A stretch of 64,000 nucleotides of DNA, from contig DATDWX010000033.1 of NCBI GenBank assembly GCA_036517335.1, forward strand, positions 9 to 64,008, written 5' to 3'. Below are positions 27,617 through 58,385 of the stretch, one piece after another. Made by a program: the position numbers and the translations under genes. Source of the DNA: Minisyncoccota bacterium. Its GTDB lineage: Bacteria > Patescibacteriota > Minisyncoccia > Phycocordibacterales > UBA2100. How positions within the stretch are numbered: the first letter of the stretch is position 1; every line of letters starts with the position of its first letter. The notes under the pieces were generated by a model that was not told the DNA's origin, ran no database searches, and saw only the letters and a list, made by a program, of their open reading frames with translations.

Positions 27617-27991
27617 ATGGAACAAGATCAGACATTTCTGGAATACGTGGTCAAAGCGCTGGTAGACAACCCGGTGGATGTGAAGATCGTGCGCACGCTC
27701 GACGAGATGGGAGTCTTGCTCACACTCACGGTGCACAAAGATGACATGGGCAAGGTCATCGGCCGCTCGGGTGCCACCGCCAAGGCCATCCGCACCATCC
27801 TGCGCGTGGTGGGTATGAAGCACGATGCGCGTGTAAATCTCAAGATAGAAGAGCCGGAAGGCAGCGAGCCCCGTGAGGCTCGTAGTATGACCGGCGAGCG
27901 CACGAGCACCGTCACTATGGAAAGGCCACCACGCGCTGCCTCGCGCGATCGCTCGGTGGACGATGTCATTGATGAGTTGAAGACAGATTGA
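27617..27991 (+). CDS. KH-domain RNA-binding protein (YlqC/UPF0109-like) with a C-terminal extension
   Basis: VKIVRTLDEMGVLLTLTVHKDDMGKVIGRSGATAKAIRTIL. Conserved position between rpsP and trmD. Confidence 0.7.
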   Translation: MEQDQTFLEYVVKALVDNPVDVKIVRTLDEMGVLLTLTVHKDDMGKVIGRSGATAKAIRTILRVVGMKHDARVNLKIEEPEGSEPREARSMTGERTSTVTMERPPRAASRDRSVDDVIDELKTD

Positions 27992-28665
27992 TGTTGCATT
28001 TTCACGTCATTACTCTCTTTCCTGAATCAATCGAGCCATACCTGAAAAGCTCGATCATCGGCCGCGCGCAGCAAGCGAAGAAAATTAAGATTTCTTATTA
28101 CGATCCGAAGAAGTTCACTCGCGACAAATACGGCAGGGTAGATCGCCGCCCGTATGGAGGAGGGCCGGGGATGGTGTTGGAAGCTGATGCAATGCTCCGC
28201 GCGGTTGATGCCGCTCTCAAAAAAGGTAAAAAGCCGCAAGGCGACACCTTGCTGGTTTTCTTCTCGACTGACGGGAAACAGTTTGATGAAGCGATGGCAA
28301 AGAAAATGGCAGGAAATTCGAGAGGTGTCGCCTCTCGGAAACACATCGTACTGATCTGCGGGCATTATGAGGGGGTGGATGCGCGAGTGCAGAAAATACT
28401 CAGGGCGAAGAAAGTTTCCGTGGGACCGTATGTGCTCACGGGTGGAGAATTACCGGCGGCAACGGTGATAGACGCCGTAGCCCGCTTCGTACCGGGCGTA
28501 CTCGGAAAGAGCGAATCCCTCGAAGCCTCTCGAGTCTCCAGCCCGGAGGTCTACACGCGCCCGGAAATCTTGGTATGGAAAAAGAAAAAGTATCGCGTAC
28601 CAAAAGTTCTCCTCACTGGCCATCATGCGAAGATCGAAGAGTGGAAAAAGAAACGACGGAAATAG
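27988..28665 (+). CDS. trmD: tRNA (guanine37-N1)-methyltransferase
   Basis: HFHVITLFPE...YGGGPGMVL...ICGHYEGVDARV. Confidence 0.9.
   Translation: MMLHFHVITLFPESIEPYLKSSIIGRAQQAKKIKISYYDPKKFTRDKYGRVDRRPYGGGPGMVLEADAMLRAVDAALKKGKKPQGDTLLVFFSTDGKQFDEAMAKKMAGNSRGVASRKHIVLICGHYEGVDARVQKILRAKKVSVGPYVLTGGELPAATVIDAVARFVPGVLGKSESLEASRVSSPEVYTRPEILVWKKKKYRVPKVLLTGHHAKIEEWKKKRRK
28317..28340. repeat. 24-bp palindrome TTCGAGAGGTGTCGCCTCTCGGAA in frame in trmD (encodes NSRGVASRK, about an 8-aa insertion relative to the E. coli TrmD)
   Basis: Inverted repeat with 7-9 bp arms. A divergent member of the TTCAAGAGGCG family, in a different coding phase. Confidence 0.6.
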
Positions 28666-28713
28666 TTCGATATGACAGCATAACTCGCACCTGCGTATAA
28701 AAGTGTCATATCG

Positions 28714-28763
28714 GCATCATGCGAAGATCGAGGAGTGGAAGAAAAAGAAACGCTCGAAATAAA
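28714..28763 (+). repeat. Near-identical duplicate of the trmD 3' end (HHAKIEEWKKK...*), 50 bp downstream of the real stop
   Basis: 28618-28665 versus 28714-28763. The intervening 48 bp carry a 9-bp terminal inverted repeat (gatatgaca/tgtcatatc). Confidence 0.6.
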
Positions 28764-36534: not shown

Positions 36535-36581
36535 GATGCGGCCAACCTCGGAAGGGCCTACTCGTGCGGCTAAGGAAGAAA

Positions 36582-36623
36582 CCCCGGTCGGCGAATTAAT
36601 CTGCCGACCGGGGTTCGCTTTCC
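36582..36623 (+). terminator. Rho-independent terminator (ccccggtcggc gaattaatct gccgaccgggg ttcgctttcc)
   Basis: 11-bp perfect stem and a T-rich tail, ending the rpoBC transcription unit. Confidence 0.75.
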
Positions 36624-36642: not shown

Positions 36643-36673
36643 AATATTAGTGGTTTACGAAACCACTAATATT
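36643..36673. repeat. REP-like 31-bp palindrome AATATTAGTGGTTTACGAAACCACTAATATT overlapping the RAYT1 stop codon
   Basis: 14-bp perfect arms. Copy 1 of 3 of this family. Confidence 0.75.
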
Positions 36674-37328
36674 CCAGGCGGTACTCCTTGAGAGAGCTTG
36701 CTTGGTTGGATCGCAAGAATGACGAGATTTCTTTTTTGTAGTCCTTAAAGACGTCGGAGAAGAGTTCGGTTGTCAGAATTGATGGAAAATTGTGTGTCCC
36801 CGTGTAGTCGAGGTAGCTGCTCCACTTATATTTTTCAAGAGTTTGCAATGCAGCTGTAGCACTCTGCAAACCATGTTGCCGCCATTCCTTGCCGCCGCGA
36901 GAAAAGTCGAGTGGATTACTATGAATGTAATTGAGAATGTGCAAAAAATGTGCGTCGGTATGGATGTGAACCTTCTTGCTGCGTCCCTGAAAAAGCGTGC
37001 CTTGCCGTTTATATCGCTCGTTAAAGTAATTGGCATATCCCACGTTCAGGCGACGAATAAACTTTGTAAGGCCGCCGTCTATCCGTTCAGATATGAGAAG
37101 GTGATAGTGATTTCCCATAAGACACCATGCATGCAGATCAACGATCCGCTCCTTTGCCATATAGTGGTTTCGTAAACCACTAATATCAGACGCGCGATGC
37201 CAAACATTTTTTGCGTCTTCAACGTCATTGAATTCCCACATGTCGTGTACGAACCGGGCCCTGTCCTTGTCATCAAGGAATAATGATCGCTTATCAACGC
37301 CGCGATTCAAAACGTGGTACAGCTCCAT
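36666..37328 (-). CDS. REP-associated tyrosine transposase (RAYT) / IS200-like HUH-Y1 transposase, copy 1
   Basis: HUH motif (AWCLMGNHYHLLI) and a Y1 motif (LNYIHSNPL; compare YIYINPV in E. coli RayT). 220 aa, flanked by REP-like palindromes. Confidence 0.8.
   Translation of the reverse strand: MELYHVLNRGVDKRSLFLDDKDRARFVHDMWEFNDVEDAKNVWHRASDISGLRNHYMAKERIVDLHAWCLMGNHYHLLISERIDGGLTKFIRRLNVGYANYFNERYKRQGTLFQGRSKKVHIHTDAHFLHILNYIHSNPLDFSRGGKEWRQHGLQSATAALQTLEKYKWSSYLDYTGTHNFPSILTTELFSDVFKDYKKEISSFLRSNQASSLKEYRLEY
37159..37186. repeat. REP-like palindrome (ATATAGTGGTTTCGTAAACCACTAATAT) inside the RAYT1 coding sequence (encodes DISGLRNHY)
   Basis: Same arms as the flanking copies with a complementary centre. 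Confidence 0.7.
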
Positions 37329-37518: not shown

Positions 37519-39300
37519 ATGTCAGATACTGTGCAGCAAATTAAGGATAGGTTGTCTATTACGGATGTGGTCAGCCAGTACGTGAAATTGGAACGAGCGG
37601 GCTCGACACTCCGCGCCCGTTGCCCTTTCCACGCCGAGAAAACACCCTCCTTTTTCGTCTCGCCCGAACGCGGCACCTACCACTGCTTCGGTTGCAATGT
37701 GGGCGGCGACATATTCTCGTTCGTCGAGCAGATCGAGGGACTGGATTTTAAAGGGGCGCTGAAGATTCTTGCAGAAAAAGCCGGCGTGGAGATCGTGTAC
37801 CGGGGCAAGGGTGAGTCTCGGGAGGGCAGGGATGAACGCGACCGATTATTTGCGCTTATGGAAACGGCCGCGATCTTTTATGCGTCGCGCTTGAGCGACG
37901 GGGCGCGGAGTTATTTACAGGGACGCGGCGTCGAAGACGCCACCGTACACGCTTTTCGTATTGGCTGGGCAGGCAATGAGTGGAGCGAGGCGTCGGATTA
38001 TCTGAAAGGCAAAAGGTTTACCGACAAAGAAATGATTGACGCCGGTATTGCAAAGAAAAACGAACGTGGCAACCTGACCGACAAATTCCGCAACCGCATC
38101 ATGTTTCCTATTGCGGATTCAGCCGGGCGCGTGGTGGCTTTTTCTGGTAGAATTTTTGGTGAGCACGCCTCTCCCGAGGCACCCAAATATTTGAATAGCC
38201 CCGAGACGCAGCTGTATCACAAATCCCGGATACTCTACGCATTCGACCGCGCCAAAATGGCTATCCGCAAGGCTGCTTGCGCGGTCTTGGTGGAAGGACA
38301 GATGGATCTCATTATGAGTCACCAAGCAGGATGGACCAACACCGTTGCCGTTTCGGGTACCGCCTTCACGCAGGAGCACGCAGCGCTTATTCGGCGGATG
38401 ACGGATAATCTCGTGCTTGCCCTCGACGCTGATCAGGCGGGTATAAAAGCAGCGGGTCGCGCTGCCCGGGTGGCCCTGCAGGGCGGACTCAATGTGAAAG
38501 TAGCCCAGTTGCCCGAGAATATGGACCCCGCCGACCTCATCGCGAAGCGCGGCATTGATGCGTGGAAAACAGCAATTCGTGAGGCTAAAGACATCATCAC
38601 CTTTTTGCTTGATGTGCTCGAGAAGCACCTGCCTGCGCAGGCAGGTGCCCAGCACAGCGACCGATTTCGCCGTGCGGTGGAGACGGTCGTACTGCCGTTT
38701 GTGGTGGATGTGGGAAGCCCGATTGCGCGTGAGCAGTATATGCGGCAAATCGCAGGGCGCCTCGGCGTCTCGGAGAGCGCAGTCGCAGAGGCGCTGAAGC
38801 GCGTGCCGACCGAGTCTCTCACGACAGGCACCAAGGGAATGGTGGCACCGCCTGAAAGTGGGACAACCACACTGAAGGGTCTCGATAGGGTACAGCCCTC
38901 CTTCGCCAAAGGTTTCGAGAGGACGCGGCATGGATATGCCTTGCTCCTTCTGCAAACTTCGATGCCAAAACCGGACATTGATATTGTGCAATACGCGCGA
39001 GAGCTTGAGGTCGCAATAGGCAAAGAGGCATTCAAAGCTCTCGAAGCCTTGAGCGAATCCGAAAAGGAAGTCCTTCGTTTTTCTGCCGAACGCTTGTACA
39101 GTGCGAGCAAGAATGTAGTGCGTGACGCCCATGAGCTCGTGAAGATCCTCCACGAGGAACGATTGCGGCGCGAACTTGCCGAAGTGGTCAAACTGCAGCA
39201 AAAGGCCGAACGCGCAGGTGGCAAGGCCGAACTGGCCACGCTGGAGAAGCGATCGAAGGTGTTGATAGCCAAGATTGCACAATTGCACGGAAAGGGATAG
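37519..39300 (+). CDS. dnaG: DNA primase
   Basis: Zn-ribbon CPFHAEKTPSF...CFGC and a TOPRIM (VEGQMD, DADQAG). Confidence 0.9.
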   Translation: MSDTVQQIKDRLSITDVVSQYVKLERAGSTLRARCPFHAEKTPSFFVSPERGTYHCFGCNVGGDIFSFVEQIEGLDFKGALKILAEKAGVEIVYRGKGESREGRDERDRLFALMETAAIFYASRLSDGARSYLQGRGVEDATVHAFRIGWAGNEWSEASDYLKGKRFTDKEMIDAGIAKKNERGNLTDKFRNRIMFPIADSAGRVVAFSGRIFGEHASPEAPKYLNSPETQLYHKSRILYAFDRAKMAIRKAACAVLVEGQMDLIMSHQAGWTNTVAVSGTAFTQEHAALIRRMTDNLVLALDADQAGIKAAGRAARVALQGGLNVKVAQLPENMDPADLIAKRGIDAWKTAIREAKDIITFLLDVLEKHLPAQAGAQHSDRFRRAVETVVLPFVVDVGSPIAREQYMRQIAGRLGVSESAVAEALKRVPTESLTTGTKGMVAPPESGTTTLKGLDRVQPSFAKGFERTRHGYALLLLQTSMPKPDIDIVQYARELEVAIGKEAFKALEALSESEKEVLRFSAERLYSASKNVVRDAHELVKILHEERLRRELAEVVKLQQKAERAGGKAELATLEKRSKVLIAKIAQLHGKG

Positions 39301-39441
39301 AATGGTCCTTCACGCTCGATTCATCCGATTTTGAAATAAAAGGGGGTGTGAGGAGCGTATCATAGGCGTAAGCAGCCCTTCTCGAAGAGGGGGTTGCCGC
39401 TTTGTCTGTATTTTTTATTACATCCAGTCCCACCTCATAAT

Positions 39442-40767
39442 ATGGCAGCAAAAAAATCAAAGAAAACAGGCAAGCGCAAACAGGTGAGCCGCCCAAGGCG
39501 CGCGAAGCTTTCGAGGGTCAAGCCGCGCGCGCGGCGTCGCTCCAGCTCCGCACAAACGGCGATGCGCCGAAGGGCTGCCCGCGTGCGGGCTGCGCGTGCT
39601 TCACGTGTACGCGCTCCTTTACCCGCCAAAAAATCCACGGCGACCAAGCCCCTGCCGGGTGAGAGGATCTTCGGCGGAGAGGCAGGACAGCGCAAATACC
39701 AGACTAAAGTCGAGGGGCTCATCCGCCTCGGACGCGAACGCGGCTACGTGACCTATGATGAAATTCTTCGCGAATTTCCCACGATCGAGGAAAACGTTCT
39801 TTTGCTCGAAGAAATGTACGAGCGCTTCGGATCGGCGGGCATCGATGTCTTAGAAGGAGGGGGCATGCTCGGAGATACGACGGCCGACGAAATATTGGAG
39901 AAGAAAAAATTGCAGCACCGCCGCGCGGACGCTGGCTTCGATTCAGTGCAGATGTATCTGCGCGAGATCGGCCAGTACCCGCTCTTGAACGGCGATCAGG
40001 AAAAAACGCTCGCGAAGCGCATTGTGGAAGGTGATCAAGAAGCGCGCGGCATTCTCGCCCGCTCCAACCTTCGTCTGGTCGTATCGATCGCCAAGAAATA
40101 CGTGAATCGCTCGCCCGACCTCACACTCCTCGACCTCATTCAGGAGGGCAATCTCGGCCTTTTCAAGGCGGTGGACAAATTCGATTGGACCAAGGGCTAC
40201 AAATTCTCCACCTATGCGACTTGGTGGATCCGCCAAGCCATCACCCGCGCGCTGGCCGATCAGAGCCGCACCATCCGCATCCCCGTCCACATGGTCGAGA
40301 CCATCGCCAAGTACAAGCAAAAGGTGCGCGAGCTTTCCCAGCACCTGGGGCGCGACCCGCTGCCGGAGGAGATCGCGGCGGAAATGGGCATCGAGATCGA
40401 GAAGATCTACACCATCCAGAAGATCAACCAAGACACCGTGTCTCTCGAGAGCCCGGTGGGTGAAGACGACGACGAGCGCTCCACCTTGGGCAGCTTCATT
40501 GCCGACGACACCATCGCGAGCCCCGATATGGACGCTTCGCGCCGCATCCTCGGCGAGCAAATGATGGACATTCTCGAAGAGCTCTCACCGAAGGAGCGCA
40601 AGATACTCGAAATGCGCAATGGTCTCACCGACGACGGCGTCTGCTCCACCCTCGAAGAAGTAGGCCGAGAATTCGGCGTGACGCGCGAAAGAATTAGGCA
40701 AATTGAGGCAAAGGCGCTAGAGAGAATAAGGTTCCACGAACGCGCAAAACAGCTCCGGAGCTACTAA
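39442..40767 (+). CDS. rpoD: RNA polymerase sigma factor RpoD with a basic N-terminal extension
   Basis: Regions 1.2-4 ([44 protein letters not shown]). Confidence 0.9.
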
Positions 40768-40864
40768 TTTTAGAGTGTACGTACCGTTGGGAGTTAAGGT
40801 GAGATAGTGTATATTGCTGGGTATGGCTTGGTTTGGATACAAAAAGGATACAGAAACAGAAACA

Positions 40865-41149
40865 ATGCAGATGGCGGTAGACCTGCCAGTATCTTTTATT
40901 GAAGAGGGTAATTCTGTTATTGCCTACACGCCAGCCCTCGATCTGTCGACCTGCGGAAGCACTCATGAAGAAGCCAAACAAATGTTTGACGAAATAGTTA
41001 AAATTTTCTTTAAAGACTTAGTTGAGAACAATACAACTGATGAGGTGCTGTCTTCCTTGGGGTGGACCAAAAAGACCCAGACGGCAAACTGGATGCCGCC
41101 TAAAATTTCACAAGAATCTATCGGGGTCCAAGTTCCGATCCCTGCCTGA
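40865..41149 (+). CDS. hicB: HicB-like antitoxin (UPF0150 fold)
   Basis: VIAYTPALDLSTCGSTHEEAKQMFDEIVKIFF matches the HicB N-terminal domain pattern. Immediately followed by a HicA-like gene. Confidence 0.55.
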   Translation: MQMAVDLPVSFIEEGNSVIAYTPALDLSTCGSTHEEAKQMFDEIVKIFFKDLVENNTTDEVLSSLGWTKKTQTANWMPPKISQESIGVQVPIPA

Positions 41150-41157
41150 CTTCCCGT

Positions 41158-41391
41158 ATGAAGGGGGTCGGTAAGATAAGTTGGCAGAGGTTTGAAAAAT
41201 TTCTCCTCGCGATTGGTTGCGAACTTAAAAGCCAAGAAGCCAGTCATCGCAAATACAAAAAGGCCGGAATTCTAAGGCCGATCATTGTTCCATGCTACAA
41301 AGAAATTCCAGATTTTGTCATTCTTAATAATTTGAGAACGCTCGGGATCTCAAGGGAGTACTTTGAGAAAACGATTAAAAGTTTCCGCTAG
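41158..41391 (+). CDS. hicA: HicA-like mRNA interferase toxin (YcfA family)
   Basis: FEKFLLAIGCELKSQEASHRKYKK...IVPCYKEIPDFVILNNLRTLGISREYF matches the HicA family pattern. Confidence 0.6.
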   Translation: MKGVGKISWQRFEKFLLAIGCELKSQEASHRKYKKAGILRPIIVPCYKEIPDFVILNNLRTLGISREYFEKTIKSFR

Positions 41392-41460
41392 ACAAGAGAG
41401 AATTCTCGCACTCATCCGCCAGACCTGCCCCGTTAGAGGCGAATGCTCTCTAACGGAGTC

Positions 41461-41523
41461 GAAGCCAAAGCCCTCGAACGCATCCGCTTTCACGAACGTG
41501 CCAAGCAACTGCGGAGCTATTAA
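41461..41523 (+). repeat. Synonymously recoded duplicate of the last 20 codons plus stop of rpoD ([20 protein letters not shown])
   Basis: Identical peptide to 40705-40767, but almost every codon differs at the third position or in Arg codon choice. Preceded by the hairpin cgttagag..ctctaacg. Confidence 0.75.
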
Positions 41524-41528
41524 AAATG

Positions 41529-42548
41529 TTAGTGCACCCCTATATTAAAAAGAATATAAGTTACAGCCCCTGCGAGAACTACGTTGATAAAGGTGTTCAC
41601 ATAGGCAGTCAGATTTTGCCAGAAGTTTGATCGCTTGCTCACTGCAAAATCCAAAAGGCTTTTAACTGACGCAATCGGATAGTTTCTGAAATTGCGGCGC
41701 GCATTGTCGTTGTATTCCCGCAGATACTCTCGCGGAGGGTTATAAGTATCCTCAAACCGATCATTGATAAGGTGCGGCAACAACACAGAATCTGATTCAA
41801 ACTCAATCAACTGCTCCATAACTTCAGCAATGTGATCGTTCAGGATGAACCACTTAGCACTTTGTCCAGCGACGAGCAGATTTTTTTCCTCAATATTTGA
41901 CCACTTTTTAACTCGTGACGCCTCGATTTCGCGCATCATATAAAAGAGATTCAGCTCAGACCTGAGCTCTTCAAATATCTGATCCTTGATGTCGAGAAAT
42001 TTGAGCTTATCTACGAATACCTGAACGCGGTCATATCCAGATTGCTTCTCTATCTCCACACCAAAGAAATTGGTTGGGATTACGAAGAAGTCGGCGTGAA
42101 AAGGAGAGGGACCAATTACTTCCAATTCGAAATTACTTCGAAGGTATTTCCGAATGTATCCACGCACCTTTACAATTCCCGTGCTGGGATCTGCGGAGGT
42201 GGTGAGGGGAAAAACGAGCGTAACTGGCGTGTCGTATTCCGATTGGGTCCATAAACTGTACCGGGTATCCGATCCACGAAAATTATGATCAGAGCTCAGA
42301 TCAATATGAAATGAGAAATTCAAAAACCTGAGAGGATGTGTTCCTTCGAGAAGAGCTGGCGGTGCATCAAGATCAGCCTCTATGTGAAGGTTTGATAGAC
42401 CTGGTATATTCCTCAACGCTTCAGAAAGGTTGAGTATTTGTTCCTCCAAAGTTATTGGCACTGCAGATGTTATTTGAAAAAAGAACGAACCTATACCAAA
42501 TGAAAAATTAGTACCTACTGGCAAATTTTCTTTATTCACAAAGCGCAT
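41529..42548 (-). CDS. Hypothetical protein with a C-terminal TM; markedly AT-rich gene
   Basis: 339-aa ORF. Local GC is well below the window average. Convergent with hicA. Confidence 0.5.
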   Translation of the reverse strand: MRFVNKENLPVGTNFSFGIGSFFFQITSAVPITLEEQILNLSEALRNIPGLSNLHIEADLDAPPALLEGTHPLRFLNFSFHIDLSSDHNFRGSDTRYSLWTQSEYDTPVTLVFPLTTSADPSTGIVKVRGYIRKYLRSNFELEVIGPSPFHADFFVIPTNFFGVEIEKQSGYDRVQVFVDKLKFLDIKDQIFEELRSELNLFYMMREIEASRVKKWSNIEEKNLLVAGQSAKWFILNDHIAEVMEQLIEFESDSVLLPHLINDRFEDTYNPPREYLREYNDNARRNFRNYPIASVKSLLDFAVSKRSNFWQNLTAYVNTFINVVLAGAVTYILFNIGVH

Positions 42549-42615
42549 GCTACTCCTTCATGATTGGCTTGTCCAAAACGAGAGACCCGTACCGGCGACG
42601 ATGTGGCGGTACGGG

Positions 42616-43074: not shown

Positions 43075-43250
43075 GACTTCCTCCCAAAATGCGATTCGAG
43101 GAACAGGCCGACCGGAATCCTACACCCCGCCGCGGGCTTGTCCAAATACTTATGGTATTTGTTAATTCCCTTCTCCGCCAAGGCTACGAAAGGGCACGGC
43201 AAACGAATAAGCAAATACAGTTCATCAAAAACGAAGCGGCCGGTTCCTTT
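43075..43250 (-). promoter_or_regulatory. Conserved roughly 150-nt 5' leader (copy 1 of 2) upstream of the 42616-43074 gene
   Basis: Shares blocks (gtatttgcttatt..tgccg.gccctttc.tagcc..gcggagaa.ggaattaacaaatacca...tatttggac...ggtgtaggatt.cgg) with 43717-43995. Confidence 0.5.
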
Positions 43251-43287: not shown

Positions 43288-43716
43288 CTAGTCGGACGGA
43301 GCGGTTGGGTGTTGCGATGCCCAGCGATCGCAGACTGCGCAATAAATCACATCGCCTAGCACTTGGACACCCAGGGCTTCGAACTCAAGGATAAGGTGGC
43401 CGAGCTTCAGACTATCTGCGAGCACAACGCTGGGCTGAGCAGGATGCGCCGCGAGAGCTTTGGCGAGCTTCGCACAACCTTCCCGCATATACCCCGTATA
43501 CAGCTGGTATTCATCGGAGATGTACACCAACTGCAGAGACGGATGCTCTTGAATATAGCTGACTGCATCGTGAAAGAGCGTTCGGCAGCTGACAGTGGAG
43601 GACCACACGCCGGGCTCGGTGGTCTCCAAGCAGAAGTGAAGCATTCCTTCCAAATGGTGACGCCCCATACTGCTCGCCGCCACCATGAGGATGTGTGTGG
43701 CCTTCATCGGAGCCAT
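43288..43716 (-). CDS. Hypothetical small alpha/beta protein, paralogue A (DUF134/NifX-like or DsrE-like; unassigned)
   Basis: Start chosen at the ATG preceded by AGGAGG. Paralogous to the 44042-44434 gene (LVYISDEY...VVLADSLKLG versus FVFIGNEY...VVFANEGLHD). Confidence 0.4.
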   Translation of the reverse strand: MAPMKATHILMVAASSMGRHHLEGMLHFCLETTEPGVWSSTVSCRTLFHDAVSYIQEHPSLQLVYISDEYQLYTGYMREGCAKLAKALAAHPAQPSVVLADSLKLGHLILEFEALGVQVLGDVIYCAVCDRWASQHPTAPSD

Positions 43717-43995
43717 GAGGTTCCTCCTGAGAAGAGCGGACGTTCTCCAGCCGGAGCTATTCCGCCGCAATCCTACACCACGCCTCGAGTTTGCCAAGCC
43801 CCCGTAGCTCCGCCGGAGGCTGATGGTACCGGGGTCCAAATATTATTTTGGTATTTGTTAATTCCTTTCTCCGCCCGGGCTATGAAAGGGCGCGGCAATC
43901 AAATAAGCAAATACGGTTGGTCCAAAATCGGATTTTCAATTCTCTAATTCGCGCGAATAAGCGAATAGTTTGAAATGTCCAAAAATGAAGCGGTC
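43717..43995 (-). promoter_or_regulatory. Conserved 5' leader (copy 2) upstream of paralogue A, with a roughly 70-nt insertion relative to copy 1
   Basis: Blockwise similarity to 43075-43250 seen in the sequence. Confidence 0.5.
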
Positions 43996-44041: not shown

Positions 44042-44434
44042 TCATGCAGCGTGCCCGTCTTGCGCCCACCCAGCGACCACGACGAGTTCGGAGAGATTGC
44101 GAGCGACTTGCGCGCCTGCGAAGATCGGCGCGTAGAGGTCATGAAGTCCTTCGTTGGCGAACACGACCCGTGGATGCGGCCTGGCCCCCGCTACGGCTTT
44201 AGCGATACCTTGGCAAAACATTTCCATAATATGGGTGTCCACAACTCCATACTCGTTCCCGATGAATACGAAATGGAGGATTCCAGCTCCCTGTATCGCC
44301 GCAGGAGCGTTTGCAAGGTTCTTAAGGTGGTCTAGATCGGGCACCAAACCTTCTCGCAGCTCGACCGCCATCTTCAGAAGAACGGTGTCGCGCGTTTCTC
44401 GTCCCACGCCAATAAGCAAACCACGAACAACCAT
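44042..44434 (-). CDS. Hypothetical small alpha/beta protein, paralogue B
   Basis: Paralogous to 43288-43716. The start is uncertain. Confidence 0.35.
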   Translation of the reverse strand: MVVRGLLIGVGRETRDTVLLKMAVELREGLVPDLDHLKNLANAPAAIQGAGILHFVFIGNEYGVVDTHIMEMFCQGIAKAVAGARPHPRVVFANEGLHDLYAPIFAGAQVARNLSELVVVAGWAQDGHAA

Positions 44435-44569
44435 GTGACTCCCTCCGGAAGGACCGGCAGGACATCTCCCACCAGGCATCAACTCAACACATGCTACACC
44501 CGTTCCCGATTTGTCAAAACGAAGAGGCCGGTCCTCCGGGGGAGGGCCGGCTGCCTGGATGCTGCGAAT

Positions 44570-44914
44570 TTAGGCGGCGTAGGATTTTTCGGCCTCTTGC
44601 TCGAAGACGAAGGTACGGGCTCCTGGGGTGGGCGGGGCGATGGGGATAGTTATCTGGTATTTCGACAACTCTCTTTCGAGCTCGTTCTTTTCTGCCTCAA
44701 GCTTTTTCACCAGGCTTTCGCTGCGATACACGGTGGGGAGGAGCCCAAGCAGTGTCGCAATTACAGCGACGCCGATCACGCAGAGGAGCACGAAGGCGAG
44801 CGGTGCGCTGAAGTGCCAGGCAAGGAGGCTCACGCTCGCAAGAGTAGCGTTTTGGAGGGTAAAGACGGTGAGGCCTGCGCCGAGAATAATGCCCAATATT
44901 AAAGCCAATATCAT
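44570..44914 (-). CDS. LapA/DUF1049-like small membrane protein (2 TM plus coiled coil)
   Basis: Two N-terminal TM helices then a KKLEAEKNELERELSKYQ coiled coil. Confidence 0.4.
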   Translation of the reverse strand: MILALILGIILGAGLTVFTLQNATLASVSLLAWHFSAPLAFVLLCVIGVAVIATLLGLLPTVYRSESLVKKLEAEKNELERELSKYQITIPIAPPTPGARTFVFEQEAEKSYAA

Positions 44915-45031
44915 ATGTGCAATTGTTATCTGCTAATATGTGCATGCCTTAAGACGTATGACAGGCGCAAGTATTTCAGAATGATGGAGTTTGTCCAAAG
45001 CGGGACACCATAGTACGATTTCGACAATATT

Positions 45032-46183: not shown

Positions 46184-47038
46184 ATGGCGAGGAAAAAAAC
46201 GGCATTGCCCATAACCCACTGGAGCTACTCCTCGTTAATGTCTTATTTGCGCAATCCTTTGGCTTGGTACAAGCGCTACGTAGAGCACGTGTACGACACG
46301 CCTTCGTCGCCCGCGGGTATCATTGGCCGGGCGGGGCATGTGGCCTTGCAACATTTCTACAGCGGGATAGCGAAGGAGGGCGCGATTGATCTAGGATTGG
46401 AATATTTGCGCAGCGTGCCGGACTTTGAGATCAATTTTGGCAAGCTAAAGTCCCTGCCTGCCGGCAGGCAGGGTGCCGCGCAAAGGAGAAAGCGCCAGCT
46501 GATGGGACGCGAATACCTGCAGGCGGTCGCTTTCTACTTGGAGAAGCCGCCACGCTACGATGTCTTGGGCGTGGAGGTCAGGGCCGACGCACTAGTACAA
46601 GGATTGCCCCTGCCGATACGTGCGGTATCCGATCTCGTCGTGCGGTCAAAGGGGGAGCGGGATGCGCTTGATGTCGTAGATCACAAATTTGTGGATTCTT
46701 TCAGCGCGCTCGGCGCTGGCAAGACGCTCTTCGTCATCCAAGCCATCTTCAACTACTACACCGTCTCACAGATGTACGATAGACCTGTACGCCGCTTCAT
46801 TCTGCAGGAGTGCAAAAAAAGAAAAAACGCCGACGGCTCACCCCAAATGCGCAAATATGTAATCAACTTCGACGAACGAGCCGAAGATTTCGCCCTCTTC
46901 CACCGTTTAATCAAGGAAACAACGGCCGATCTCGCAAAGCGACAACACTTCCTCCCCAATCCATCTGATATGTTCGAAGGCGAGAATTCCTTTGATATTT
47001 ATCGGCTTGGATTGACTGGTAAAAATCACACGTTATAA
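46184..47038 (+). CDS. PD-(D/E)XK nuclease superfamily protein (RecB/Cas4-like N-terminus, no Cys cluster)
   Basis: N-terminal HWSYSSLMSYLRNPLAWYKRYV and a D...D-x-K-like motif (ALDVVDHKF). Confidence 0.5.
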   Translation: MARKKTALPITHWSYSSLMSYLRNPLAWYKRYVEHVYDTPSSPAGIIGRAGHVALQHFYSGIAKEGAIDLGLEYLRSVPDFEINFGKLKSLPAGRQGAAQRRKRQLMGREYLQAVAFYLEKPPRYDVLGVEVRADALVQGLPLPIRAVSDLVVRSKGERDALDVVDHKFVDSFSALGAGKTLFVIQAIFNYYTVSQMYDRPVRRFILQECKKRKNADGSPQMRKYVINFDERAEDFALFHRLIKETTADLAKRQHFLPNPSDMFEGENSFDIYRLGLTGKNHTL

Positions 47039-51673: not shown

Positions 51674-51707
51674 CGACATTTAACGTCTTGGGTTATTGGA
51701 AAAATAA

Positions 51708-51744
51708 TGAAAGACATCGGATGTTGGACATCCGATGTCTTTCA
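51708..51744. repeat. REP-like palindrome TGAAAGACATCGGATG-ttgga-CATCCGATGTCTTTCA upstream of RAYT2
   Basis: 16-bp perfect arms. Shares the GACATCCGATGTC core with 52426-52452. Confidence 0.7.
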
Positions 51745-51759
51745 TGGTATCATTGGGGT

Positions 51760-52422
51760 ATGGATCTGTACCACATTTGCAATCGGGGTGTCGATAAGCG
51801 AGAGGTGTTTCTTGATGATGGCGATCGCACACGATTCGTTCATGACCTGTATGTAATGAACGATGTGCATTCGGTGCCGAATCACGGCCGTCATGAGCTA
51901 GGCAACATATCAGATGCAGGACACGAACGAGAGCCACTTGTTCATTTGTACGCATGGTGTCTCATGCCCAACCATTACCACCTACTCCTGTCCCCGGTCG
52001 ACGATGAGCCCGCGAATCTGTCTTTGTTTGCGCAGAAAGTGGGCATGGGCTACTCGAAGTTTTTCAATAAAAAATACAAACGATCCGGTGCCCTTTGGCA
52101 GGGGAAACATAAAAAGGTGCATATACAACGAGACGCTCATTTCCTCTATATTCCGTTCTATATCCATCTTAATCCTCTCGACCTATCGATTCCGGAATGG
52201 CGTCACGGGCGGGTGAAGGATGTGGACAAGGCCTTGGAACAACTAAGCGGCTATCGCTGGAGCAGTTTTCTCGACTATACTGGAGTAAAAAATTTCCCGT
52301 CCCTTATCGACAAACCTCTGCTTACAGATATGCTCGGTTCGCGCAAGAAACAAAGCAAGATAATAGCGGATATCATCGGCGACGGAATATTGGCAAATTC
52401 CAGCTGGGCATTAGAGATGTAG
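51760..52422 (+). CDS. REP-associated tyrosine transposase (RAYT) / IS200-like HUH-Y1 transposase, copy 2
   Basis: AWCLMPNHYHLLL (HUH) and FYIHLNPLD (Y1). 220 aa, a paralogue of 36666-37328. Confidence 0.8.
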   Translation: MDLYHICNRGVDKREVFLDDGDRTRFVHDLYVMNDVHSVPNHGRHELGNISDAGHEREPLVHLYAWCLMPNHYHLLLSPVDDEPANLSLFAQKVGMGYSKFFNKKYKRSGALWQGKHKKVHIQRDAHFLYIPFYIHLNPLDLSIPEWRHGRVKDVDKALEQLSGYRWSSFLDYTGVKNFPSLIDKPLLTDMLGSRKKQSKIIADIIGDGILANSSWALEM

Positions 52423-57182: not shown

Positions 57183-58385
57183 TTACACGTTTGCCAGCCT
57201 TAAATTCCCACTGGCGCGAAGAGATGCCGGATCGGCGAATTCTTTTTTGAGAGCGTGGAAATAGCCGGCTAGCGCGATCATGAGGGCGTTGTCGGTGGCC
57301 CATTCGGGTGCGGGGATGAGGAGTTGGACATCCTGTTCATCGAGTGCTTCTTTGAGCCGTTGTTTGATATGCGTGTTGGCCGAGACGCCGCCGCCAACTA
57401 AGACCGTTTGTGCGCCATGTTCCTCCACGGCTCGCAGGGTTTTCGCGACGAGCACGTCGGCGGCGGCGTCTTCAAATTCGCGCGCGATTTCTATTTTCTT
57501 TGCATACGTGAGCGTTCGACCGCCGATCACATTGCGCACTGCTGTTTTCAATCCCGAGAATGAAAAGTCGTAAGATTCATCCTTCATCATCGGCCGCGGC
57601 AATTCAAGAGGCGACACCTCTTGAATCTGACGCGAGCGAGAGGCAAGCCGTGCGATCTCCGGCCCGCCAGGATAGGGAAGTCCCATCATCCGCGCAATTT
57701 TATCAAACGCTTCGCCCACCGCATCGTCGCGCGTCTCACCAATCGTTTTAAACTTTGGCCATTCAGTAATCAAATCCAATTCCGTGTGCCCACCCGAGAT
57801 GAGTAGCGCAATGGCGGGGAATCCGGACTCGTCGATTCTTAATCCCGATACTTCGTTATATAACGAAGTATCGGGATTTGAGACTATCGCCATGGCAATA
57901 TGACCCTCCAGGTGGTTCACAGGTACGATCGGAATATTCCATACTGCGCTCAGCGCTTTTGCAAAATTTACCCCGACCCACAGCGCGGGCTCAAGGCCGG
58001 GGCCGTGCGTCACCGCGATCGCATCAATATCAGGCCTCCCATGTGTTTTTAAAAATTCTTCGAGCGCCTGAAAAAGTTCCGGTTCTCGCACCAGCAATTC
58101 CCGGATGTTCAAGGACCGTCCTTGAACCAATTGGATCAAGGACGGTCCTTGAACAGCTTGAGCGGACTGTGCGAGTACTTCACTTAGAAGCGGGACGAGA
58201 TTTTTTGCATGCTCGCGCTTGGCGAGATTGGGAAAGATGCCGCCGTAGGGGGCATGAGTCGCGATTTGTGAGTGGAGTGCGTTGCCCAGCACTTGAAATT
58301 TGAACGATGCGCCAAATGATCCTTCGGCCTCGATCAAACAAACAGCGGTTTCATCGCACGAGGTCTCTATCCCTAAAATCTTCAT
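57183..58385 (-). CDS. tsaD: tRNA N6-adenosine threonylcarbamoyltransferase TsaD (400 aa, about 55 aa longer than typical)
   Basis: MKILGIETSCDETAV, HLEGHI, GGVSAN. Carries two in-frame palindromic insertions. Confidence 0.85.
   Translation of the reverse strand: MKILGIETSCDETAVCLIEAEGSFGASFKFQVLGNALHSQIATHAPYGGIFPNLAKREHAKNLVPLLSEVLAQSAQAVQGPSLIQLVQGRSLNIRELLVREPELFQALEEFLKTHGRPDIDAIAVTHGPGLEPALWVGVNFAKALSAVWNIPIVPVNHLEGHIAMAIVSNPDTSLYNEVSGLRIDESGFPAIALLISGGHTELDLITEWPKFKTIGETRDDAVGEAFDKIARMMGLPYPGGPEIARLASRSRQIQEVSPLELPRPMMKDESYDFSFSGLKTAVRNVIGGRTLTYAKKIEIAREFEDAAADVLVAKTLRAVEEHGAQTVLVGGGVSANTHIKQRLKEALDEQDVQLLIPAPEWATDNALMIALAGYFHALKKEFADPASLRASGNLRLANV
57602..57626. repeat. Palindrome ATTCAAGAGGCGACACCTCTTGAAT in frame in tsaD (encodes QIQEVSPLE on the minus strand)
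   Basis: 10-bp arms. Same family and phase as the gyrB and rnhB copies. Confidence 0.75.
58107..58154. repeat. 48-bp compound palindrome GTTCAAGGACCGTCCTTGAAC-CAATTG-GATCAAGGACGGTCCTTGAAC in frame in tsaD
   Basis: Two 21-bp palindromes in inverted orientation around CAATTG. Encodes VQGPSLIQLVQGRSLNI. Confidence 0.75.

Follow-up and report, generated by a model that had tools for sequence, protein, structure and literature searches.

e14 and phage 21 integrate in the 3' end of icd in E. coli and carry a replacement end for the gene. Homology-facilitated illegitimate recombination, known from natural transformation in Acinetobacter and pneumococcus, joins DNA through one conserved anchor and a non-homologous joint, with no recombinase involved. 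Mobile open reading frames (ORFs) are also known, Allomyces atp6 being a further example. The mobile ORFs of fungal mitochondria, which carry an endonuclease and make hybrid genes with a duplicated C-terminal part (PMC3630166), are the closest published analogues of the locus described here. This locus lies in a 64,000-nt stretch of a Minisyncoccota bacterium genome (assembly GCA_036517335.1, contig DATDWX010000033.1, positions 9 to 64,008), which is called the window below. In the window, the last 20 codons and the stop of rpoD, the primary sigma factor gene, occur twice, with a hicBA-like toxin-antitoxin (TA) pair and a 35-nt palindrome between the two copies. The distal copy is the former end of rpoD, and comparable stacks of rpoD ends were found in related bacteria. 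The finding is more general than a single scar. As to its mechanism, capture of foreign DNA is considered slightly on the probable side, and a hairpin-directed cassette is considered a lesser possibility.

Bacteria of the candidate phyla radiation (CPR, Patescibacteria) are poor in recognisable mobile elements, their genomes are tiny, and their gene gain is poorly understood. A literature search found neither palindromic elements nor stacked rpoD ends described for CPR bacteria. In the present case, the end of rpoD is a recurrent entry point for small cassettes (TA pairs and other genes with their own promoters) without an integrase, and up to four successive gene ends form a readable record of past events. 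In-frame palindromes and re-spelled end duplicates of other essential genes point to a general, undescribed route of genome invasion and patching. Stacked ends will be misread by gene callers and pangenome tools, and they can readily serve to mark recombination between lineages. Should the palindrome turn out to be a site which an enzyme recognises and which targets coding sequence precisely, it would also be of interest for genome engineering.

The duplicated end of rpoD in the window

The functional rpoD (39439..40767, + strand) contains the Pfam Sigma70 regions r1.1, r1.2, r2, r3 and r4 and ends with copy 1 (40705-40767). By translation, the identical 20 residues and stop are encoded again at 41461-41523 (copy 2). 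The two copies share 45 of 63 nt, with no identical run longer than 8 nt. All 18 differences are synonymous: 16 are in third and 2 in first codon positions (Arg AGR versus CGC), and none is in a second position. A first-pass annotation, made from the letters of the window, had proposed this duplication with an unchanged peptide and differences at third positions and in the Arg codon family, which is borne out here. The pair is also recovered by a direct-repeat search of the window. Because an identical 1-kb segment is present on contigs of several samples, the duplicate is no assembly artefact. The rpoD protein of the window (P0052) is identical on 8 contigs.

Copy 1 belongs to a rare-codon stretch of the functional end (RIRQI plus copy 1, 40690..40767, + strand), which is spelled AGA ATT AGG ... 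AGA ATA AGG. The codon score of 40690-40767 is -1.26 to -1.36, compared with a genome mean of -1.08, and the rare codons AGA, AGG, ATA and CTA make up 5%, 7%, 14% and 4.5% of their own families. Among 20-codon windows, copy 1 is at the 10th percentile of the codon score and copy 2 at the 61st. The earlier contrast between AT-rich, rare codons in copy 1 and host-like codons in copy 2 therefore holds for codon rarity but not for AT-richness, as the GC content at third codon positions (GC3) is 0.65 in copy 1 and 0.60 in copy 2.

The displaced old end (41459..41523, + strand, containing copy 2) is not translated. An in-frame TAG is located at 41434-41436, the sole in-frame ATG for copy 2 (41443) is within the hairpin loop and is missing in relatives, and the frame of copy 2 differs from that of copy 1. 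The segment 41459-41523 is 100% identical in L200 and L210-L212 (related stretches are given such numbers throughout). A hairpin had been described as abutting the distal copy. The hairpin is present (CGTTAGAG-N9-CTCTAACG, 41431-41455), but the old end is longer than was thought and the hairpin lies inside it. The remnant CATCCGCCAGA (41413..41423, + strand), with codons of R-I-R-Q-I in host-style spelling, joins seamlessly to TC GAA GCC... at 41459 when 35 nt (41424-41458) are removed. A 9-12-nt counterpart of this piece is also found in L008, L085, L086, L179, L133 and L136. With 11 nt of rpoD before it, the hairpin is thus inserted within the old end, 11 nt from the upstream boundary of that end.

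The inserted 35 nt form a palindromic repeat (41424..41458, + strand, CCTGCCCCGTTAGAGGCGAATGCTCTCTAACGGAG) of the structure CCTGC-CCCGTTAGAGGC-GAAT-GCTCTCTAACGG-AG, with a DNA folding energy of -10.3 kcal/mol and a bulged T. The hairpin occurs once only in the 64-kb window, but it is not private to this site. A contig scan found the palindrome family in at least 119 metagenome stretches; no match was obtained in IMG/VR viral contigs or in Rfam. Among the matches listed there are 105 distinct instances. One stem pair covaries in these instances (A-T in 65, G-C in 38, mismatched in 2), the bulged T is conserved, and 92 of the 105 have a G.T wobble that corresponds to an A.C mismatch on the opposite strand. 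Covariation, bulged T and strand-specific wobble together indicate a structure that is read on one strand. The palindrome lies in frame inside ORFs in 16 of the 105 instances, for example in those of ribosomal protein L21 and GatC. Other copies are located in the loops of terminator-like inverted repeats or are nested within another copy (L100). By eye, a target-site duplication was seen around a few intergenic copies (L089, GGAATTTG) and is not general, and a function as DNA-uptake sequence was ruled out by the density of 1 per 64 kb. Small palindromes of another type, CCTGCC...GGCAGG, are present in the window at 38625-38648 and 46452-46473, one of them in frame in dnaG and encoding LPAQAGA; this type is also inserted in the displaced rpoD ends of L002 and L213.

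The 35-nt palindrome also stands beside re-spelled end duplicates of other genes, such as the topA 5' end (L082) and the 3' end of another gene (L102), among others. In the window, trmD is a second, independent gene-end duplicate, with an unrelated hairpin. The gene (27988-28665, Pfam tRNA_m1G_MT) is followed by TT, by the hairpin CGATATGACA-N26-TGTCATATCG (28668-28715) with a 10-bp stem, and then by a repeat of its last 15 codons (HHAKIEEWKKKKRSK*, 28716-28763), which is about 10% diverged and has one codon indel. The end duplicates of topA, trmD and other genes halt exactly at the ORF boundary, which is the place where homology between species ends.

Between the copies of the rpoD end, the cargo starts with a sigma-70-like promoter, TTGGGA-17-TATATT (40787..40815, + strand), found by a consensus scan in a segment that is conserved in L200 and L201. 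The hicBA-like pair reported earlier at this position was confirmed. The HicA toxin gene (41158..41391, + strand) matches Pfam HicA_toxin (PF07927) with an E value of 2.3e-7, over the curated cut-off. The HicB-like antitoxin gene (40865..41149, + strand) encodes the 94-aa protein P0001, whose homologs are named HicB family by JGI. Its AlphaFold2 model (pLDDT 86) has the antitoxin-type folds 3k6q and 2yzt as best matches with a probability of ~1, but with E values of 0.2-0.3 over ~50 residues. The HicB-like protein has no Pfam match, no DNA-binding domain was identified in it, and a PDB sequence search gave spurious repeat-protein matches only.

Recurrence, decay and recombination in relatives

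The comparison set comprised 80 species-representative genomes with a related rpoD, 17 of which have a Kaiserbacteria-type end. One to three extra rpoD ends are present downstream of the gene in 7 of these 17 genomes (L002, L004, L006, L008, L010, L011 and L012), and none was found in the 63 more distant Paceibacterota genomes. Metagenome contigs with extra rpoD ends were also found (L081, L085, L086, L104, L133, L136, L141, L179 and L185), and such contigs include additional cases without cargo. Four loci among the representatives (L008, L006, L002 and L010) are free of cargo: rpoD with its stop is followed by 9 nt of old rpoD, a palindrome of 19-38 nt and the remaining old end with its stop. 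Cargo-free versions of 107 nt exist. The palindrome family of the window is present in L008 and L006, at two different codons of the old end, and other palindromes are present in L002 and L010. The first half of copy 1 in the window resembles the AGR/ATA-spelled new ends of the cargo-free loci of this family and the second half is unlike them, which fits a later crossover inside copy 1.

Longer arrays contain more than two ends. The array L081/L138 has four, in the order rpoD, a 234-aa gene, a decayed end, a PemK-like toxin, a hairpin, an intact end, a 183-aa gene and a partial end. Three ends are found in L085/L157 and in L179, where two of them have hairpins, at a third position of the rpoD end; L085 and L157 were dismissed as a before/after pair because they are the same sequence. 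In a different CPR lineage (L129/L139), three cargo-free units are arranged head to tail behind rpoD as synonymous re-spellings of DKINRLRGY*. The cargo varies across loci and includes HicA, PemK, a DUF5678 and aspartyl-protease pair (L136, where the window has hicBA) and others. The junction positions in rpoD vary as well (G|VTRER, RIRQ|IE and ERIR|FHER), and some cargo cassettes have no hairpin (L004, L081 copies 1 and 3, L085 copy 1). Pfam and PADLOC searches of the window cargo and of 18 cargo ORFs of related arrays found no recombinase in more than 15 occupied loci. The absence of an integrase, noted before for the window, extends to these related loci.

Unoccupied sites were found in related species (L001, L003, L005, L007, L014 and L214), and the rpoD encoding protein P0123 is unoccupied on 24 of 24 contigs. 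Behind the stop of an unoccupied rpoD comes either a terminator (L001, L005, L015, L021) or, in L214, a gene of ~100 aa that has a conserved leader. In L133 and L085/L157, this ~100-aa gene is directly behind the distal copy. Because the distal copy in these loci adjoins the gene that directly follows rpoD in the unoccupied L214, the distal copy is the native end, and copy 2 in the window the former, untranslated 3' end of rpoD. This supports the earlier proposal that the copy contiguous with rpoD and the hicBA pair came later. In L004 and L011, the ~100-aa neighbour gene is the cargo itself.

In the rpoD body, identity to the window is 78-84% for all available relatives, and synonymous sites are therefore saturated. 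The identity of copy 1 and copy 2 is 71%, compared with 70-84% between species. The two copies thus are as far apart as orthologs from different species. Among six distinct intact displaced copies, which have the 9-nt piece and hairpin in common, there are at least 24 substitutions, of which 20 are in third and 4 in first positions and none is nonsynonymous, when 22% synonymous changes would be expected at random. Such synonymous-only divergence indicates that each intact displaced copy was a working end until recently. Other displaced copies have one change (L185 and L136, the latter with its stop codon lost) or are heavily decayed by changes, stops, truncations and small palindromes (L002, L004, L011, L012, L081 copy 1, L133 and L213), and copy 2 is wholly lost in L202. 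Since this decay series extends from one change to full loss, we read the displaced copies as probable relics of different ages and not as a second functional end.

Two further alleles are mosaics. From 41197 rightwards, L200 has no mismatch to the window over 3953 nt, a stretch that takes in the 9-nt piece with the hairpin, copy 2 and all of the DNA beyond. Left of the breakpoint at 41196, the 5' part of hicA, hicB, copy 1 and the rpoD end are ~15% diverged, and copy 1 is spelled CGC ATC CGC. L213 shows the reverse: left of ~41234 it is identical to the window, and right of it the sequence is diverged, with a decayed copy 2 that two more small palindromes interrupt and with unrelated DNA downstream. 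The alleles of the window, L200 and L213 co-occur in one sample, ERZ4903055, and both breakpoints are inside hicA. These mosaics indicate that occupied alleles, though diverged, exchange their left and right halves by homologous recombination. The rare-codon spelling seen in the window's copy 1 is a trait of one allele and not of the cassette, since in L200 the cassette is the same and copy 2 is identical, but copy 1 is spelled differently.

Several other features were seen in related stretches. In L081 (12620-12760 and 13930-14010) and L179 (4870-4990 and 5400-5465, all rpoD-oriented), minus-strand cargo genes share an ACTATG..AAATAGGGAAGnCCGTCAAAC block, which abuts a displaced RFHERAK fragment and is preceded by three small CCCTCGCAGG-type hairpins; the reverse complement of the block, TTGACGG-N17-CATAGT, is a promoter. 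In L136 (2609-3813, rpoD-oriented), an IS630-like transposase in two ORFs is located directly behind the displaced rpoD end that lacks its stop. A hicBA homolog is located 15 nt behind a histidine-kinase-like gene in L206-L209 (2980-3620), where the 11-nt direct repeat CCTATGGCTTG occurs at the hicB start and again behind hicA; the repeat suggests that hicBA cassettes may move by another route. In L049 (3180-3760, minus strand), 48-nt identical direct repeats of a gene 3' end flank a ~330-nt GC-rich insert, which encodes a small protein on the opposite strand, alters the C-terminus of the host gene and contains no recombinase.

Origin of the displaced ends

Capture of foreign DNA through recombination anchored in the conserved rpoD end, with a right joint tied to the palindrome, is the explanation towards which we lean, if only slightly. 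The present end (copy 1) and the hicBA cassette would have arrived as DNA from a related Kaiserbacterium. The left crossover would be ordinary homologous recombination in the highly conserved coding sequence of rpoD region 4. The donor gene end, with whatever follows it, would then be rejoined to the recipient by a non-homologous right joint, 9-12 nt upstream of the 35-nt palindrome that splits the old end, and no dedicated integrase would be needed. Since the incoming piece carries a complete gene end, rpoD would stay intact, and the recipient's own end would be displaced and left downstream. Repeated capture, or misaligned recombination between occupied alleles, could stack old ends with cargo in between, and homologous recombination could afterwards spread and reshuffle the occupied alleles among lineages.

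Capture is the best-supported account of the synonymous-only divergence at between-species level, the variable junctions, the hairpin-less cassettes, the absence of a recombinase and the strain mosaics, and also of new copies that end exactly at a stop or start codon. It likewise explains the neighbour-gene cargo of L004 and L011, which is expected if a donor rpoD end is captured together with the donor DNA downstream of it.

Some observations weigh against capture. The earlier suggestion to look for an empty site succeeded among related species, but no empty allele of the same species was found: 8 of 8 contigs with the identical rpoD protein P0052 are occupied. In at least 7 independent origins, the new end reaches precisely to the stop or start codon, and the old sequence is taken up again 8-12 nt ahead of the palindrome. 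This regular geometry resembles a joint defined by an enzyme more than one made by random illegitimate joining. Between genomes with ~82% identical rpoD, the old-sequence piece and the hairpin reach an identity of 91-98%. Among four cargo-free loci, the new ends have 12 substitutions in 60 nt, the 33 nt upstream have 14, and the old ends have 21 in 60. Because the hairpin and 9 nt are conserved and the new ends are about half as diverse as their flanks, the new end, stop, 9 nt and hairpin may travel as a unit. No gradient of donor-like sequence was found beside the hairpin in displaced copies. Moreover, the account assumes natural competence of these organisms.

The regular geometry would be more easily explained by a hairpin-directed cassette, which we regard as the main alternative, though the less probable one. 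The replacement end, stop, optional cargo, 9 nt and palindrome would form a non-autonomous unit, inserted between two codons by a recombinase that acts in trans; candidates are a Y1/HUH transposase (RAYT/IS200 type, two in the window) and an integron-like enzyme that uses single-stranded DNA in folded form. The palindrome would serve as a putative recombination site, and the carried gene end could make insertion into an essential gene harmless. On this reading, the 35-nt palindrome with its 9-nt flank might be the business end of an undescribed class of tiny mobile cassettes in CPR bacteria. Conceivably, the re-spelled target end (the last codons and stop, or the start codon and first codons) spares rpoD, topA, trmD and others, and an enzyme in trans mobilises the cassettes and ferries TA cargo. 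The rpoD end could then be an integron-like landing pad without an adjacent integrase gene, though we hold this doubtful.

Beyond the constant geometry, which applies to both gene-end orientations, the hairpin-directed reading draws on the occurrence of one hairpin family at three rpoD-end positions and in other genes, on the covarying, one-strand structure of the stem, on the conservation of hairpin and 9 nt far above their flanks together with the lower diversity of new ends, on differing cargo at the same stop|9-nt junction, on the elements nested in one another's loops in L100, and on the Y1_Tnp genes of the window at 36666-37328 and ~51760-52353. It is weakened by several facts. Each unit has one hairpin, with none at the left junction, and no conserved cleavage motif precedes the 9 nt (TAA, TAG, TCA, GCG and GCA were found there). 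The cargo cassettes without hairpin do not fit it. Y1_Tnp genes show no enrichment around hairpins (4 of 119 loci) or rpoD (3 of 80), the palindrome has one copy in 64 kb and no viral match in IMG/VR, and the strain mosaics show plain homologous recombination.

Three other explanations are very unlikely. The first is that both ends function, with copy 2 under selection as a part-time working end through reversible excision, or as an RNA or DNA signal. Six displaced copies do keep a perfect frame despite saturated synonymous divergence, and L081 copy 2 is intact though the adjacent 9-nt piece has decayed. Against this, many displaced copies are decayed, interrupted by palindromes or truncated, and L202 has lost copy 2; displaced copies also have no conserved start codon, an upstream in-frame stop and a frame unlike that of copy 1.

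Equally improbable, and disfavoured, is an origin in which the gene end was duplicated in tandem on the spot, for instance when a palindrome inserted, and the two copies then diverged where they stood. Such an origin would suit the trmD copies, which are so little diverged, and the duplicated segment that always begins 8-12 nt before the hairpin. A silent relic should however gain mostly nonsynonymous changes, whereas all 18 differences in the window and all of the at least 24 among displaced copies are synonymous, and the divergence of the copies equals that between species.

A remnant of an integrase-mediated island or prophage that brought its own replacement end and later lost the integrase and most of the element, close to the integration scar first proposed, is largely refuted and has very little probability left: a displaced 3' end with mostly synonymous differences is a hallmark of such integrations, as with e14/phage 21 and icd, and a low-GC block extends from ~40690 to 42600, but there is no integrase in the occupied loci and arrays, cargo-free units of 107 nt exist, no identical att core exceeds 8 nt, several junction positions are used, and the hairpin has no match in viral contigs.

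Neighbouring genes and comparison with known systems

Behind the displaced end, a low-GC ORF of 339 aa (41529..42548, - strand) has its own promoter-like site at 42575-42547 (promoter scan) and no Pfam or PADLOC match. GC3 is 0.48 in the HicB-like gene and 0.44 in this ORF, compared with 0.73 in rpoD; the cargo and the 339-aa ORF are compositionally foreign. The ORF belongs to a variable region between rpoD and a LapA-like gene (44570-44914) and is possibly the cargo of an older event. DNA downstream of rpoD is unrelated between species (identity ~0.24). tRNA/tmRNA and Rfam scans of the window from 36 to 46 kb found nothing. A GTTTGTCCAAA motif recurs ahead of minus-strand genes (42569-42587, 44511-44529 and 44991-45009 in the window, and also in L003, L009 and L157); its reverse complement gives a -35-like hexamer, TGGACA, and the promoter-scan site at 42575-42547 matches it. 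An 82-nt direct repeat (85% identical), with a 29-nt repeat before it, is found at 43112-43231 and 43765-43927, each copy upstream of a minus-strand ORF. The ORFs at 43288-43839 and 44042-44482 resemble paralogs, and the repeats may mark a tandem of small cassettes with a common leader or promoter.

The two Y1_Tnp (IS200/RAYT-like) genes of the window, on the - strand at 36666-37328 and on the + strand at ~51760-52353, are 48% identical and adjoin perfect palindromes of other sequence (36580-36615, 36643-36673 and 51707-51745). Long near-perfect palindromes with arms of 19 and 25 nt and no spacer (57841-57878 and 58106-58155) lie inside the ORF 57183-58385 (- strand).

Two candidate identities were rejected. 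A diversity-generating retroelement does not fit, as the differences between copies are of all types and synonymous, not confined to adenines, and no reverse transcriptase is encoded among the neighbouring genes. The three hairpins of L129/L139, at a period of ~72 nt, resemble a CRISPR array, but the 'spacers' are successive rpoD-end copies.

The palindrome shares some properties with REP/RAYT systems, in which an imperfect, bulged palindrome of ~35 nt also occurs over many genomes and Y1/HUH transposase genes are present. In contrast, its copy number is low (1 in 64 kb), a GTAG head outside the stem is missing, and no RAYT was found that has these hairpins on its flanks, the palindromes beside both Y1_Tnp genes of the window being of other sequence. 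With Rickettsia palindromic elements it shares in-frame copies inside ORFs, but these elements are 100-150 nt and not 35 nt long. Neither REP nor Rickettsia palindromic elements are known to carry replacement gene ends.

Integron attC cassettes are likewise small, promoter-less or self-promoted, often of TA type, piled beside a fixed gene and provided with a single imperfect distal hairpin with an extrahelical base. Here, however, insertion is inside coding sequence and a replacement gene end is carried. Neither IntI nor another integrase was found in the window from 36 to 46 kb or in the arrays, and an attC reading of the hairpin was rejected, as GTTAGAG ... CTCTAAC is the reverse of the RYYYAAC ... 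GTTRRRY box order.

The remaining systems are more similar in outcome. For e14 and phage 21, icd is kept by an incoming, mostly synonymous replacement end, and the old end remains beyond the insert as a pseudo-copy, as here. The present loci differ in that they lack an integrase and an identical att core, have inserts of 0 to ~1.5 kb, use several junction positions and show serial stacking of ends at a primary sigma factor gene. Homology-facilitated illegitimate recombination has in common with this locus the single conserved anchor, here rpoD region 4, and a non-homologous joint made without a recombinase. In its classical form, recipient DNA is usually deleted and joints are scattered, whereas here the recipient end is kept and the joint is 9-12 nt from a palindrome in many independent cases. 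With the mitochondrial mobile ORFs, this locus shares a foreign C-terminal coding part fused in frame, a native part displaced downstream and spread by recombination between genomes. Those ORFs encode a homing endonuclease; Pfam and PADLOC searches found no endonuclease ORF (LAGLIDADG, GIY-YIG or HNH) in the cargo of the window or of related arrays, and a 35-nt palindrome marks the joint instead. Because each compared family fails on a defining feature (the integrase, the endonuclease, IntI and the attC box order, or copy number and a cognate RAYT), the arrangement stands outside all of them and is a variant of gene-end replacement.

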